A program made the position numbers and the translations under genes. A stretch of DNA of 64,000 bases from the NCBI RefSeq assembly GCF_988243305.1, contig NZ_OZ547136.1; one strand, given 5' to 3'. A model generated the notes under the pieces. The model did no database searches and was not told the origin of the DNA. It saw nothing but the letters and a program-made list of their open reading frames with translations. How positions within the stretch are numbered: the first letter of the stretch is position 1; every line of letters begins with the position of its first letter. Of the stretch, positions 23,245 to 29,235 are shown in pieces.

Positions 23245-23775
23245 TTATTTATTCAGTCCGGCGTCCTGTTCAAAAGGCTCGACATAAAAACTTTCAGCGC
23301 CTTTATTCACCTTGATACCGGCAATGCCTTTCACCGCATCCGGCTCCGCCAGGACGGCTTCCTTGTTCACTTCCTCTTTCGTGCGGATGAAACGCTCAAG
23401 CCCCATACGGCGCAGCATTTCAATCACACCTTCCACATCACGGCTGACGCTGCATGATGGCGTTCCCAGCCGCCATGACACCGTTCCGGTGGTCAGATTG
23501 GCTGTTTTGGTTTTGCCGCCGTTCGTCAGCTCATCACGGTTGGTTTTGCACCAGTCCTGAATCCCTTTAAAAAGCACTTTGATTTGCTTTTTAAGATTTT
23601 CAATCTGCGGCGTATAACGGGCGGTGATTTCTGCCACTTCGTCATTCATCGCCGTTTCCAGGCGCAGCGCCTCTCGCTGAATATCTCCCAGGGTGCGGAT
23701 ATCACGGCTGACTTCTTCCCGGGTCTGCGGTGCCGCCTCGGCTGCGGCCTTTAATTTTGTAACGCGTTTAGCCAT
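23245..23775 (-). CDS. gam: Gam host-nuclease inhibitor (Mu Gam-like DNA end-binding protein)
   Basis: 176 aa; translation closely resembles Mu Gam as I recall it (…DELTNGGKTKTANLTTGTVSWR…). Confidence 0.85.
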   Translation of the reverse strand: MAKRVTKLKAAAEAAPQTREEVSRDIRTLGDIQREALRLETAMNDEVAEITARYTPQIENLKKQIKVLFKGIQDWCKTNRDELTNGGKTKTANLTTGTVSWRLGTPSCSVSRDVEGVIEMLRRMGLERFIRTKEEVNKEAVLAEPDAVKGIAGIKVNKGAESFYVEPFEQDAGLNK

Positions 23776-23786
23776 TTTGTTTTTCC

Positions 23787-24080
23787 TTATTGCAGTGTGC
23801 CTGATGCTTTATGCACGCGGTGGCGTTTAATGATGGCATCCGCTCCAAAAGACTGTGCAGATGCCTGAAATTCCGCTGAGAGAAACTGAATAATTGCAGG
23901 ACTGTGATACTGGAGAATACTTGCATAAACGTCACAGAGTGACGTCGGCCTGTTATCCGTATCACGTTCTGTTTTCACATCCACTCCAATCTTTTCATGC
24001 ACTTCAACACAGTCATTGCCTGCCAACTTTTCGTCATGCGAAACATGATTAAATTCAAAAATAACGCGTACTTTGCTCAT
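23787..24080 (-). CDS. hypothetical small protein, paralog of adjacent ORF
   Basis: Starts MSKVRVIFEFNHVSH, adjacent ORF starts MSKVVHIIFEYKEHVIH; start set at internal Met. Confidence 0.5.
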   Translation of the reverse strand: MSKVRVIFEFNHVSHDEKLAGNDCVEVHEKIGVDVKTERDTDNRPTSLCDVYASILQYHSPAIIQFLSAEFQASAQSFGADAIIKRHRVHKASGTLQ

Positions 24081-24084
24081 GGAA

Positions 24085-24357
24085 TTACCCCTGTTGATTA
24101 AATTCATTACCGTTAATAACCCCGGAAGCCATGCCTCTGTCTTTCATGAATGCACTGGCTTTCATTGCCACAAGCTCTGCGAAGTTTCTGCTTTCCGCGA
24201 GCATAACCACCCCAAAAATCATGGCGGGTCCATCACCTTTCTGCTTTATCCCGGTTGAACGTATGTCCAGACTTACCCCCATGCGCACTGTTCCATCAGC
24301 GTTTTTATGGATAACGTGCTCCTTATATTCGAAAATAATGTGTACGACTTTACTCAT
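24085..24357 (-). CDS. hypothetical small protein, paralog of adjacent ORF
   Basis: 90-aa ORF, shared N-terminal motif with 23787..24080. Confidence 0.5.
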   Translation of the reverse strand: MSKVVHIIFEYKEHVIHKNADGTVRMGVSLDIRSTGIKQKGDGPAMIFGVVMLAESRNFAELVAMKASAFMKDRGMASGVINGNEFNQQG

Positions 24358-24635
24358 CCTCTGGTCCTCGTTCTGTTTGGATAACTGACCCGGCGTCTGA
24401 CCTCACGGCAGAACCGAATCATGGCATTAAAGGCTTCTTCCTCCGTCACCGCTTCCGGTATCCCCGGAACCAGTAACTGCTCCTGTTCATCACGTCCATG
24501 ACGCGCCATAACCTCAATCACATGCCGTACCGTGGCAGGCTTTCCGGCAACTATCGGCAATGCACCTTCCGGCAGGACGTAACCAAACTCAATAAGACCA
24601 CTCGACCACGCCCATGCAATGAGATTTTTTTTCAC
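24354..24635 (-). CDS. hypothetical early-region protein
   Basis: 93-aa ORF. Confidence 0.5.
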   Translation of the reverse strand: MKKNLIAWAWSSGLIEFGYVLPEGALPIVAGKPATVRHVIEVMARHGRDEQEQLLVPGIPEAVTEEEAFNAMIRFCREVRRRVSYPNRTRTRG

Positions 24636-24636
24636 C

Positions 24637-24903
24637 TCACACCTCCCAGTAAACCGTGCAGCCGCTGATGCGGGTGGCCTTCACACGGCGGCGCAGGCCG
24701 TTGGTCTGTATGGTGATTTCAATTTCACCGGTTCCCTGCACGTTGCCTACCGGCGGCGTGGTTTTCAGTGCAAAACGTTGCGGATAGCGCTTACTGCGTT
24801 CCAGTACCGCACCGGCAAGTTCGGTCAGACGGCGCGCGCTGTTCAGGGAGTCGAATAAATTCATTTTGTTACCGCAGGATTGCATATTCATATAACACCT
24901 CAT
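24637..24903 (-). CDS. hypothetical early-region protein
   Basis: 88-aa ORF. Confidence 0.5.
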   Translation of the reverse strand: MRCYMNMQSCGNKMNLFDSLNSARRLTELAGAVLERSKRYPQRFALKTTPPVGNVQGTGEIEITIQTNGLRRRVKATRISGCTVYWEV

Positions 24904-25131
24904 TTAGCTGACTTGTTTCGCACCAACAGAACGGCATATTCCGCTGTAAACTTCTGTCGCACCTTCGCGATCAAGTCCGGCAGATATCACCATTCGTGTG
25001 CGGTCATTAAATTCAAAAAGTAAATCGCCACATTCTTTATTTTCGGCCAGTGAAATCACCTTCACGTTATCGAAATTAACCAGGTAAAAGCGTCCGTAAA
25101 TATCAGGAATATTAAATACCGCCATAATCAC
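24904..25131 (-). CDS. hypothetical small protein in the Mu kil position
   Basis: 75-aa ORF immediately downstream of B; positional inference only. Confidence 0.45.
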   Translation of the reverse strand: MIMAVFNIPDIYGRFYLVNFDNVKVISLAENKECGDLLFEFNDRTRMVISAGLDREGATEVYSGICRSVGAKQVS

Positions 25132-26069
25132 ACCTGTGAGAGTAATTCAGGGTTGGTATAAACCTCTTTAAAGGCCGCATTAATATGTTTTTCTGTCAGC
25201 GCCGCGCCTTCACCGCTGGCGGTGAGCCACGCCTGGTTAAGCGTATGTGTCAGAACGCGTAACGCTCCCGGCTTTTCAGCGATAGCCTGCATGACGGCCA
25301 GCTCAGCCTCACCACTGATCCCCCACGCCATGGCAATGGCCAGCACATCCGCCTTTTTGGCCTTGCGAAGTTGTTTTGTACGGGCAAGACGGCTGAACAG
25401 GCGCGATAAATCATCAAAGGCGCGGCGTCCACCTTTAAACAATCCGCGCGGGTTACCAATAAGCACCATCCCGATCCCCGTGGCGTCCTGAATTGCCCGG
25501 AGTTGCTCCAGACCGTCAATACCAAGATGATCCGCCTCATCCACAATCACCAGTCCACGCGTTCCCATCAGGCGACGGCGGATGGCGCGGGATAATGCCC
25601 CTTTGTTCGCGCGGGTGTAATCAATCCCCAGCGCATCGGCCAGCTCCAGCAGACACTCCGTGACGCTGGAGTGCGCGGGTGACAGGGTGATCATCCAGGT
25701 GTTTGGTTGCTCCTGGCAGTAATTACGGGCAGTGGCCGTTTTACCCACACCCGGTACGCCCACAATAACGTTAATACAGCCCATCAGGCGAACCGCCTGA
25801 AACAGTGCGCGCAGCTCCTGGACTGTCTGAGTTTCCACAAACTGCGGCGGTTCCGGCAGTGCGCTTTGTTTATTCCAGTTCTCATACCAGGAGCGCAGGG
25901 AAGCAGCCACAGCAGCGTTATCGCCTTTATATTTTCCCTTACGGAAAGCCGATAATGTGCCGTCGGAAATTCCCGCCTCTCTGGCGATGGCATACTGCGT
26001 CAGTACGCCGCCATCAATAAGTTCATCAATGGTCTTGATTACATCGTTAATATCGGTCATATTATTCAC
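25128..26069 (-). CDS. transposition ATPase B (MuB-like AAA+ target DNA activator)
   Basis: 313 aa, Walker A GVPGVGKT, translation resembles Mu B. Confidence 0.9.
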   Translation of the reverse strand: MNNMTDINDVIKTIDELIDGGVLTQYAIAREAGISDGTLSAFRKGKYKGDNAAVAASLRSWYENWNKQSALPEPPQFVETQTVQELRALFQAVRLMGCINVIVGVPGVGKTATARNYCQEQPNTWMITLSPAHSSVTECLLELADALGIDYTRANKGALSRAIRRRLMGTRGLVIVDEADHLGIDGLEQLRAIQDATGIGMVLIGNPRGLFKGGRRAFDDLSRLFSRLARTKQLRKAKKADVLAIAMAWGISGEAELAVMQAIAEKPGALRVLTHTLNQAWLTASGEGAALTEKHINAAFKEVYTNPELLSQV

Positions 26070-26142: not shown

Positions 26143-28233
26143 TCAGGCCAGCGGATCACTTTCTTTTAATTTCGCTTCGAGCAACTGCAATCCCCGCTGG
26201 AAATTACGCTCGTATTCTTCATCAGGTTCATCGTCAGCGACCGGTTGCTGAACGATCACCGTATTACCCACAGGGCGGTATATATTTTCCAGCCACGGCT
26301 CCTGTGGCTTGTGCTCCAGCACGTTGACAATCTCATCCTCGGCATCACGGATTTTTTCCTCTGCGCGTTTACGCATGCCTTTAAGGCGCTGCTGCTGTTT
26401 GTGGTATTCCGCGCTGACCGGGAAGGCTTCGCGTTTATTGCCGTCCCATACCGCCTCGCAAATCACGCTGCCATCCAGGCGACGTACGGTAATTCGTTCG
26501 GCATCATGAATGTCATAGCTGATAAGCACCTTACGACCATGCTCGTCACGCAGCTCGGGCGCGTAGTAAATATTATTCAGCCAGCGTATTTCACAGCGTC
26601 TTACAGGGCGCTCCACCATCGGCCGGAACATATCCCGCAGTTCAACATCGGACAGCCATTCAATTTCCGTGTCCTCTTCCGCCAGGCGTTTTTTTCTGAA
26701 CTCCGCCGGGCTGTAATGTTTACCGTTCGGCTTCATGGGTAATTCATCGTGCGGCCGGTTGTTGTACCACTCAACACCATCACGAATGGCATCAATCAGT
26801 TCAGCCCAGGACGGTGAATCACGCATCGCTGACTGCTGCCGGGCGTTCAGCCGTTTGCCCTGTTGCAGGGCAGTAAATGCCGAGCGTAAATCGCGGTTGG
26901 TTTTGCGTAACGTCTCGCGATCTGCACCTTTCCCGAAATAGGTGCGGTATTTACGGGCTATGCGCATCGGTAATGTGCGGTTAAGCCGTTCGATAATGCC
27001 TCGTCCCTGCGGATTACCGGCAATCCCGGTCGGGTGATTAATCCCCAGTCGCGGCAGTATCCCCACAACCTCCTTATCCAGGATGTCGGCGGTTTCCCCG
27101 GAGCCGTTATCCGAGTAATACAGAAACGGTTTGCCGTGATGGCGAATGCCGTGCTGTATGGCACCGGCTACGGCGAAAACATTTTCAGCCAGGTCAAGGC
27201 TCCAGCCCACCACAAAGCGCGTGCCACCGTCGATAACAAAGGTCACTTCCGGTGCAAATGGCCGACCGTGAACCGGGTGTGCGCATTTCAGCTTCATGCC
27301 GTGACCGTCACCAATCCAGACATAATTCACCGGCATTTTTGACCAGTCGCGGCGCGTGAATCCCTCAAGCTGGCGGTATTCACTGCCGGTCACCCGGCCT
27401 TTTTGTTTCACCACTTCCGGCAGTTTCTTCATTGCGCGGCGAATGGTGTCATAAGACGGCATGATATCGAGCATATAAGGCTCATCAGCGTGCCGGTGCT
27501 GCCATTCAGCGACAAAATCCTCGTAAGCCTCGGTCATTGGTCGGCCGTTTGACTGGCGATACTGCGCCAGAAATTCGGGCAGCCAGTTAATATCTTCGGC
27601 TTTTATTTCCTGGCGCTTACCCGGTGCCAGTAAAAGCAGGCGTTCAGCGGCGTTCTGCGCCTTGTTAAAGGCCGCAATCCAGCGTTTCAGCGTGATTTCA
27701 CTTAACGCGCGGCTGTTTCCCTTTTTGGCGTTCGCCGTCTCAACCATTGCCACAATGCGCTCGTCCAGCTGCGAACGTGCCAGGTTGTCAACGATAAACC
27801 GGATAGCCTTCGCACAGCTGAAACCAGGTTGTTGCGCGACTTTCAGAACTTCGCTGACGATCGCGATTCGTGCATCAGCCACCTGGCGCTGGTTTTCAGT
27901 CAGGGCATTAAGGCGTTCGACCATCAGTTGTGGTGATCCGCGATATGCCTCCACCGCATCAACCACGGCAGGCGAGCGTCTGGCCTTTGTCACCACTGGA
28001 GCCGGTGATTCATCGACTTTTTGAGTCATCAGTTGCAGGGCGTAGCGTTCACGTAATGCCTGCTGCGTCACTTCAGGTAAACAGTCGATGCTGTATTCAG
28101 TTGCTTTAGAGCCTGAGCGACGACGGGAACAACAGCTTTTCCCTTGTACGTAACGTTGTAATGCCTGGCGAATACCTTTTGTTGTAGCAGGCATTCCGGG
28201 CGCACCAATCAGTTCTTTTGCAATGACATACAT
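26143..28233 (-). CDS. DDE transposase A (MuA-like)
   Basis: 696-aa ORF between ner and B. Confidence 0.85.
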   Translation of the reverse strand: MYVIAKELIGAPGMPATTKGIRQALQRYVQGKSCCSRRRSGSKATEYSIDCLPEVTQQALRERYALQLMTQKVDESPAPVVTKARRSPAVVDAVEAYRGSPQLMVERLNALTENQRQVADARIAIVSEVLKVAQQPGFSCAKAIRFIVDNLARSQLDERIVAMVETANAKKGNSRALSEITLKRWIAAFNKAQNAAERLLLLAPGKRQEIKAEDINWLPEFLAQYRQSNGRPMTEAYEDFVAEWQHRHADEPYMLDIMPSYDTIRRAMKKLPEVVKQKGRVTGSEYRQLEGFTRRDWSKMPVNYVWIGDGHGMKLKCAHPVHGRPFAPEVTFVIDGGTRFVVGWSLDLAENVFAVAGAIQHGIRHHGKPFLYYSDNGSGETADILDKEVVGILPRLGINHPTGIAGNPQGRGIIERLNRTLPMRIARKYRTYFGKGADRETLRKTNRDLRSAFTALQQGKRLNARQQSAMRDSPSWAELIDAIRDGVEWYNNRPHDELPMKPNGKHYSPAEFRKKRLAEEDTEIEWLSDVELRDMFRPMVERPVRRCEIRWLNNIYYAPELRDEHGRKVLISYDIHDAERITVRRLDGSVICEAVWDGNKREAFPVSAEYHKQQQRLKGMRKRAEEKIRDAEDEIVNVLEHKPQEPWLENIYRPVGNTVIVQQPVADDEPDEEYERNFQRGLQLLEAKLKESDPLA

Positions 28234-28483: not shown

Positions 28484-28650
28484 ACTTCCTCTATTCTAAA
28501 AAGTTACCCGCGCGGATATTCGTGCGGATATCTGTACGGGTAAATAATAGAACAAACAAAAGAACCAAATCAAGGTATTTTGTTCTTTTTATTCTTTGCG
28601 GTGTTTTTGTTATTAATATCAATAAGATAAATAAAAAGGAACCTGAGAGC
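28484..28650. promoter_or_regulatory. divergent promoter/operator region between ner and repressor
   Basis: Direct repeats GCGGATAT at 28512 and 28524; inverted repeat AAAAGAAC (28556-28565) / GTTCTTTT (28582-28590). Confidence 0.5.
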
Positions 28651-29235
28651 ATGAACATGAAAAACAGTTCTTTTCTCGACGAAGGAAAAGAACCAGTGAT
28701 CGAACGGATTTTTCGTCTTGCAGAGCGTTACAAATCGAGAAGTGAGGCGGCTAGAGCATGGGGAATAAACGTTCAGACATTGCAGAACTACTACAAAAGG
28801 AGAAACAATCAGCCGCCACCACAACCAAGAAAGCACCATCTCCAGAACATTGCAGAAAGAGAACATGTATCTATGGAGTGGCTGGTCAATGGTTATGGTG
28901 ATGAGCCAAGCATGAAAAAAGAACCAATTGAACAAACAAAAAGAACAAAAAAACAAAGAATTGATGATAGTGATTCCATCATCATGAGGGCGTGGGACTC
29001 GCTAACTTCATCTGAACAAGAGATTTTGTCCAACTTATTGATCAGAAAAGGGGCCGAACTACTAACCGTTTTGCTTGATACAGATATTCAAAAACTGCAC
29101 TCATTGAGCGGAGTCAAAAGAGCACTAGCATTGAGTCTACAAGAGTTACCCGATGATACTGTAAGAGAGATTTATGAAGAATGTGAAGCTAAGGTTAATC
29201 ATTTAAATGTAACCCAGAAAAAGGCTGGTGCGTAA
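28651..29235 (+). CDS. prophage repressor (Mu c position)
   Basis: 194 aa from ATG with AAGGA RBS; divergent from ner. Confidence 0.6.
   Translation: MNMKNSSFLDEGKEPVIERIFRLAERYKSRSEAARAWGINVQTLQNYYKRRNNQPPPQPRKHHLQNIAEREHVSMEWLVNGYGDEPSMKKEPIEQTKRTKKQRIDDSDSIIMRAWDSLTSSEQEILSNLLIRKGAELLTVLLDTDIQKLHSLSGVKRALALSLQELPDDTVREIYEECEAKVNHLNVTQKKAGA

Follow-up and report, generated by a model that had tools for sequence, protein, structure and literature searches.

Two adjacent open reading frames (ORFs) at positions 23787–24357 of the window, the 64,000-nucleotide (nt) stretch of contig NZ_OZ547136.1 (assembly GCF_988243305.1) analysed here, are probably tandem, divergent members of one fast-evolving protein superfamily, that of gene product 7 (gp7) of the phages Mu and D108. 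They lie in the semi-essential early region of a Mu-like prophage, the left part of which takes up the first ∼29 kb of the window and is read on the minus strand. ORF1 (24085–24357 (−), 90 amino acids (aa), phrog_4107) starts MSKVVHIIFEYKEHVIH and ends ...NQQG; ORF2 (23787–24080 (−), 97 aa, phrog_2230) starts MSKVRVIFEFNHVSHDE and ends ...GTLQ. In Mu, the semi-essential region belongs to the long early transcript, and its 14 orfs are mostly unassigned (PMC3325207). As we propose it, the superfamily would consist of ∼85–97-aa proteins with D108 gene 7 and Mu gene 7 (E6) as prototypes, in which an N-terminal strand leads into a predicted β-hairpin, a loop that varies and a long amphipathic helix; ORF2 would be its D108-gp7-like copy in this prophage and ORF1 a much more diverged, basic copy confined to this prophage type. 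This would unite phrog_4107, phrog_2230 and phrog_10252, catalogued apart as families of hypothetical proteins, in a single Mu/D108 gp7 superfamily recognisable by a simple motif at the N-terminus. An earlier note on this DNA had described two adjacent ∼90–97-aa early proteins next to gam. It was right on their positions, lengths and N-termini, and right also on 'early' and 'next to gam'; gam begins 11 nt past the ORF2 stop within a Mu-like early operon.

The kinship of ORF2 is best approached through the gene-7 slot of other transposable phages. ORF2 matched phrog_2230 at E 1.8e-38, and the first clue to a wider family was that Mu gp7 matched this same PHROG over its full length at E 0.009. 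Bridging sequences came from 80 Mu-like early regions collected by anchoring on Gam. The gene-7 slot of true Mu-type phages proved to hold sharply different alleles that all begin alike and all end ...[KR]H: a Mu type (MAKVIIEIKN..., 87 aa, phrog_10252), a D108 type (MAKVIFEFN/T..., 89 aa, 97.8% identity to D108 gene 7, phrog_2230 at E 1e-39) and a bridging form, L127 (MAKVVFEFK..., 85 aa), that matched both phrog_2230 (4e-24) and phrog_10252 (1.7e-5). Across D108-type alleles, matches to phrog_2230 ran from 1e-39 to 4e-24. In profile comparisons with hhalign, controlled with column shuffles, the ORF2 family aligned with the D108 type over 74 columns at 31% identity (probability 96.9%, E 1.6e-10, score 57, null 11 ± 2.6), and the Mu gp7 family aligned with the D108 type plus L127 over 77 columns (94.6%, E 7e-8, score 43 against 10 ± 2.3). 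Because a full-length profile match ties ORF2 to the D108 type and another profile match ties the D108 type to Mu gp7, ORF2 is a secure member of the superfamily. Direct comparison of the Mu gp7 family with ORF1 and ORF2 gave marginal scores (14.4 and 12.6, respectively, against nulls of ∼10 ± 2; p 0.03–0.06).

ORF2 and D108 gp7 have in common their PHROG, an [IV]IFEF core, their size (97 and 89 aa) and an early-operon site between B/kil and gam. They differ in that D108 gp7 is a single copy directly after kil/gp6, separated from gam by gp8 and gp9, and starts MAKV and ends ...[KR]H, whereas ORF2 starts MSKV-R, carries 5 extra residues in its hairpin and has another C-terminus. Mu gp7 (E6, Mup07) fills the D108 gp7 slot, starts MAKVIIEI, is 87 aa long and has the same order of predicted elements; unlike ORF2 it falls into a separate PHROG and matches the pair directly at the marginal level given above, and being uncharacterised it permits no transfer of mechanism.

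What ORF1 and ORF2 visibly share is their N-terminus, MSKV(V)R[IV]IFE[FY], a version of the motif M-[SA]-K-V-(x0-2)-[IV]-[IF]-E-[FIY] that stands at the very start of both proteins. In ORF1 it occupies codons 1–11 (MSKVVHIIFEY, 24325–24357 (−)), which are predicted to form the first β-strand, and in ORF2 codons 1–10 (MSKVRVIFEF, 24051–24080 (−)). The form MAKV[IV][IF]E[IF] is found in 23/23 Mu-type alleles, and in the Mu/D108-type loci recovered each allele type at the gp7 locus, those of D108, phage Mu and SfMu included, begins with this motif. A start-anchored alignment of ORF1 residues 1–11 with ORF2 residues 1–10 scored 28, a value reached by none of 200,000 shuffled ORF2 N-termini, and the two family profiles scored 35.2, some 11 standard deviations above the column-shuffle null (10.7 ± 2.2). 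Some comparisons of the two full sequences might have suggested that two unrelated small ORFs merely happen to begin alike: BLASTP returned no N-terminal or full-length alignment, just a spurious 14-residue match at E 0.11, and unanchored Smith–Waterman alignment gave p ∼0.025. The shuffles, the profile score and the recurrence of the motif at the head of every allele type effectively refute such a coincidence.

ORF1 is probably a paralogue of the other members along its whole length, albeit a very diverged one, the case for this being made from profile comparisons. The ORF1 family aligned with the merged superfamily profile over 73 colinear columns (5–78 against 3–76; probability 86.6%, E 4.5e-6). 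Its score of 34.2 (null 10.8 ± 2.2) came mostly from the motif. With the motif removed from both sides, the score was 17.7 over 55 columns in the same register, against a null of ∼10 ± 2; this value was reached in 0/100 shuffles of the target and 2/300 of the query (p ∼0.007), while reversed ORF1 scored 6.9 and decoy families of the same operon 8–15. Leaving ORF2 out of the superfamily profile gave 18.2 for motif-less ORF1, the same result, so the residual signal in the ORF1 body stems from the Mu/D108-type members and not from ORF2. When a hidden Markov model (HMM) was built from superfamily bodies alone, lacking both motif and ORF1, the ORF1 bodies ranked 2–12 among ∼1200 background ORFs, rank 1 going to a frameshifted ORF2. 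Both ORFs also match the superfamily in size (85–97 aa) and in location (early operon of a transposable phage, from B/kil to gam).

A number of observations weigh against membership of ORF1, or against the superfamily as drawn here. Direct similarity between ORF1 and ORF2 ends at about residue 11, with nothing significant further on: hhalign scores of the two profiles fell to 10.8 (null 10.1 ± 1.9) once the first 10–11 residues were removed, and stayed at shuffle level when 15–17 or 24–25 residues were trimmed. Taken literally, this is the outcome, no significant similarity past the first ∼15 residues, that the earlier note had named in advance as speaking against its paralogous pair. Motif-less ORF1 gives a weak signal against the superfamily, with an hhalign probability of just 5% and E 0.007, and all of the family alignments are low in diversity (effective number of sequences 1.4–4). 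No PHROG cross-match links ORF1 to the other gp7 PHROGs. ORF1 is basic (isoelectric point (pI) 9.2), whereas the remaining members, ORF2 (pI 6.3) among them, are acidic (pI 4.8–6.3). The C-terminal [KR]-H (or [KRC]-H) of Mu-type alleles is missing from ORF1 and ORF2, although this ending may define just the Mu-type subgroup. AlphaFold2 models built on the shallow family alignments were poor (predicted local distance difference test (pLDDT) score 53 for ORF1 and 68 for ORF2); a Foldseek search of BFVD and PDB with the ORF2 model yielded nothing at E ≤ 0.001, the ORF1 model being too poor to search with, and searches of Pfam, NCBIfam and PDB sequences with both proteins and the family profiles returned nothing meaningful.

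Part of this evidence would also fit an ORF1 body unrelated to gp7, to which only the first 10–11 codons were added by copying or conversion between the neighbouring genes, the 5′ segment being the recombination junction of cassette exchange. The point at which direct similarity stops is what such grafting would leave, and the boundaries of mosaic blocks in both genes fall exactly at the motif. One ORF1 allele has a 16-nt exact run, CGCGTTATTTTTGAAT, in common with ORF2, and the N-termini of ORF1 and ORF2 are closer to each other (Ser2, inserted Arg/Val) than to the Mu-type MAKV[IV][IF]E start, while their bodies are not; the opposite charge of ORF1 points the same way. A grafted, unrelated body should not, however, remain colinear with the superfamily, in register and above the null, after the motif is taken away. 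Nor would it be expected to agree in the order and boundaries of its predicted secondary structure (E3–18/E24–34/H54–73 against E4–19/E25–39/H48–77 in the two low-confidence models, that is, a predicted β-hairpin at ∼3–19 and 24–39 followed by a long helix), or to be alike in size class and position. We therefore regard grafting as unlikely, though it is the most serious competitor of common descent. The earlier note's word 'paralogous' thus probably holds, by way of D108/Mu gp7 intermediates, but finds no backing in a direct comparison of the two bodies; likewise the similar starts it pointed out are not random, but the direct similarity goes no further than the start.

The motif might instead be a by-product of a nucleic-acid element in the 5′ segment, such as a signal for translation initiation or coupling, an RNA structure or a protein-binding site. 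This idea draws on the DNA of the first 30 nt of ORF2, which hardly varies between alleles that are 40% different in other parts (proportion of synonymous differences (pS) 0.017 in codons 1–10, compared with 0.25–0.40 elsewhere in the gene), and on the tight coupling of both genes to their upstream neighbours. In ORF1, however, the equivalent codons have normal synonymous divergence (pS 0.19) with a ratio of nonsynonymous to synonymous differences (pN/pS) of 0.06, and across allele types the motif residues stay constant while codons and upstream sequences vary; the motif is therefore conserved as peptide and not as DNA. The near-zero pS of ORF2 is best explained as the effect of a recombination junction. 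Rfam gave zero matches in the early operon, and promoter- and terminator-like sites between 22.5 and 29.5 kb occurred at chance level only. An origin of the motif in such an element is accordingly very unlikely.

Where the variation in the pair comes from is evident from related prophages. In one of them (L033), identity to the window is 100% from 24700 across ORF1 and as far as codon ∼10 of ORF2 (∼24070), falls to 40–87% over the ORF2 body and is back at 90–100% in gam; another (L042) shows the mirror pattern, with its divergence in the ORF1 body. Types of ORF1 and ORF2 alleles occur in all combinations, which is to say that they assort independently. The bodies of the two genes are thus replaced by recombination independently of each other. 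The junctions lie at the gene ends and at the conserved 5′ motif, and the motif segments of ORF1 and ORF2 each form the left junction of an exchangeable body. An obligate, co-evolving ORF1–ORF2 heterodimer was considered and is disfavoured, since the alleles assort independently and ORF2 exists without ORF1.

Selection on the pair was assessed by pairwise Nei–Gojobori comparison of 18 ORF1 and 22 ORF2 alleles. The ratio of nonsynonymous to synonymous substitution rates (dN/dS) was 0.30 for ORF1 and 0.35 for ORF2, compared with 0.09–0.18 for the neighbouring genes gam, kil, B and those of 93 and 75 codons (p93 and p75); the pair is thus under purifying selection that is looser than that on its neighbours. 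After the strongly constrained motif, pN/pS in ORF1 was 0.53 for codons 12–27, 0.19 for codons 28–40, 0.23 for codons 41–66 and 0.48 for codons 67–90. The corresponding values in ORF2 were 0.00 for codons 1–10, 0.45 for codons 11–37, 0.33 for codons 38–66 and 0.68, the highest of any region, for codons 67–97. By this method neither gene has dN/dS above 1, over its whole length or in any region. The diversifying selection that the earlier note had envisaged, and for which it had advised a dN/dS check across homologues, is not borne out by these values: the proteins vary through exchange of whole bodies. The gp7 slot of the Mu semi-essential early region is in this sense a hotspot of cassette exchange and not a site of positive selection by point mutation. 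Since dN/dS lies well below 1 in both ORFs and the pair is conserved in 225/5426 complete Escherichia coli genomes, ORF1 and ORF2 are both genuine protein-coding genes.

A recent local duplication followed by drift, as the earlier note would have it, is unsupported as an origin for the pair. ORF1 and ORF2 are not each other's closest relatives over their length, and ORF2 is far closer to D108 gp7, a protein of another phage lineage (score 57), than to ORF1, for which the comparison of bodies lies at the null; on this ground the two are not a recent duplicate that simply diverged in place. Compatible with the data are an old duplication with strongly asymmetric divergence, the stacking of two alleles by recombination, and conversion of the 5′ ends at a later time. 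One copy, after kil/gp6, is the state of Mu-type phages, and two, directly before gam, that of Sp18-type prophages. A one-copy state also occurs in the prophage of E. coli CI5 (NZ_CP011018.1; L043, 2424–3046), where kil, a 74-nt spacer, ORF2 and gam follow one another without ORF1, and where the spacer is homologous to that preceding ORF1 in other prophages.

Both families are narrow in distribution. The 571-bp segment was present at 80–99% identity in 231/5426 complete E. coli genomes, many of them O157:H7, where its 90- and 97-aa products are annotated as hypothetical proteins. Among 5.8 billion proteins, word-indexed searches recovered close relatives of ORF1 and ORF2 from E. coli alone; for ORF2 these formed two allele groups ∼58% identical to each other, alongside mosaics (P0043, for instance). 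When 1.84 billion representatives were searched exhaustively with HMMER and the ORF1 profile, two or three proved to be genuine and full-length (P0059 and P0028); of these P0059, 54% identical and from another E. coli Mu-like prophage, was the sole diverged full-length relative; its remaining matches were fragments (P0060, P0029, P0062, P0065 and P0036) or long repetitive proteins and provided no bridge to ORF2. In tblastn searches of phage genomes, ORF1 and ORF2 were found solely in Mu-like elements inserted in Shiga toxin (Stx) phages. The only phage-database records with the region are LC727881.1 (69401–71401) and LC727895.1 (10336–12516), Stx1a- and Stx2c-converting prophages in which it is annotated 'inserted Bacteriophage Mu-like phage', and the Mu-like element has therefore transposed into other prophages.

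Loss and damage of the genes are also seen in nature. Frameshifted alleles of the pair occur, and a 67-aa E. coli protein in the NCBI collection (P0073) is an in-frame fusion of ORF1 residues 1–49 to ORF2 residues 79–97 at a shared Phe-Gly, equivalent to window positions 24211–24357 joined to 23787–23846, with the rest of both genes deleted. Because ORF1 is missing from one prophage, and because such frameshifts and this fusion exist, the genes are dispensable in nature, and both would be accessory, non-essential components of the phage. Together, the five to six allele types, the one- and two-copy states, the deletions and the fusion make up a natural allele set for screening Mu early genes for roles in host takeover or anti-defence.

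As to function, ORF1 and ORF2 encode small soluble proteins that, on our reading, would be made from the long early transcript and would act by binding a host protein or a defence component. The invariant N-terminal strand would then serve as a structural core or an oligomerization edge, with specificity conferred by the more variable parts, namely the hairpin, the loop and the C-terminus. From position, size and behaviour in populations, we offer only tentatively, as the earlier note did with its candidate functions in host takeover or anti-defence, the suggestion that the two are early accessory proteins directed at a host factor or a defence component. PHROG function labels revealed no match of ORF1 or ORF2 to a characterised inhibitor, PDB sequence searches no structure for any superfamily member, and the literature no study of what Mu gp7/E6 or these ORFs do.

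Mu-like phages of Pseudomonas offer a parallel in their anti-CRISPR loci, which are polymorphic slots for accessory, anti-defence genes. By analogy, the pair resembles such slots in that its members are small, fast-evolving, narrowly distributed, fixed in position, exchanged as cassettes between near-identical phages and dispensable. It differs from them in lacking an anti-defence match in sequence or fold and an associated regulator gene, and in lying in the early operon and not in the head-gene region. It is conceivable, though doubtful, that the gp7 superfamily as a whole is a polymorphic specificity locus supplying interchangeable small binders against variable host targets such as defence systems. 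Equally speculative is the corollary that Sp18-type prophages have stacked an acidic D108-gp7-like copy and a neofunctionalized basic one, with the N-terminal strand acting as a common scaffold or oligomerization edge. If this were true, the host factor or defence that a phage neutralises could be predicted from its allele type. As it stands, the analysis reveals no new mechanism, and the pair is an ordinary polymorphic part of the accessory early region of Mu.

One lead to a known regulator was followed and dropped. A D108-type allele matched the RNase E regulator RraB (PF06877) with 17.7 bits and E 0.005, below the gathering score of 23.3, over the helix and the C-terminal part. This kinship was rejected, as only 2/20 members match, ORF1 and ORF2 not at all, and the superfamily scored 9.3 against E. 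coli RraB in hhalign (probability 0.1%). RraB (E. coli rraB, L137 4474–4890) and the D108-type allele (for example L104 1471–1740) both end ...RH.

The gene order around the pair in the window is A-B-p75-kil-p93-ORF1-ORF2-gam, followed by a Gp11-like gene (Pfam Gp11) and later genes. The MuA transposase (26143–28233 (−)) carries Pfam Mu-transpos_C and HTH_Tnp_Mu_1, MuB (25128–26069 (−)) Pfam Phage-MuB_C, and gam (23245–23775 (−)) Pfam Phage_Mu_Gam at E 5.5e-42; between MuB and the pair lie p75 (24904–25131 (−), phrog_3375), kil (24637–24903 (−), phrog_2679) and p93 (24354–24635 (−), phrog_1518, labelled 'host nuclease inhibitor'). The stop of p93 and the start of ORF1 overlap in an ATGA (24354–24357 (−)). 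Only 4 nt separate the ORF1 stop, TAA, from the ORF2 ATG, which suggests translational coupling of ORF1 and ORF2, and a Shine–Dalgarno-like AGGGG (24088–24092 (−)) lies 7 nt 5′ of that ATG within the final codons of ORF1. An alternative start at 24107 would give a 106-aa ORF2; it is not favoured because of the placement of this AGGGG before the MSKV ATG and because homologous loci are annotated with the 97-aa form in RefSeq.

Other parts of the early region vary as well. Present in the window, p93 is absent from L036, L042 and L044, stands directly before gam in the more distant L127 and L133, and matches no Pfam or NCBIfam family. Some Sp18-type prophages have a 139-aa gene similar to Mu gp8 (E7) between p75 and kil (L036 2013–2432; L042 3290–3709) that the window is without, a further instance of early-region mosaicism. 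A 237-aa ORF (28522–29235 (+)) that is oriented divergently to the early operon, where Mu has its c repressor, has no Pfam match at E ≤ 0.001. Plus-strand ORFs of 45–85 aa across 23700–24400 (for example 24131–24388 (+)) are antisense to ORF1 and ORF2 and look like shadows of the minus-strand genes. Finally, p75 contains an internal LLFEFNDRTRM that resembles VIFEFNRMED at the N-terminus of D108 gp7; as a decoy in hhalign it scored 15.0 over 7 columns, a likeness that is probably due to chance.

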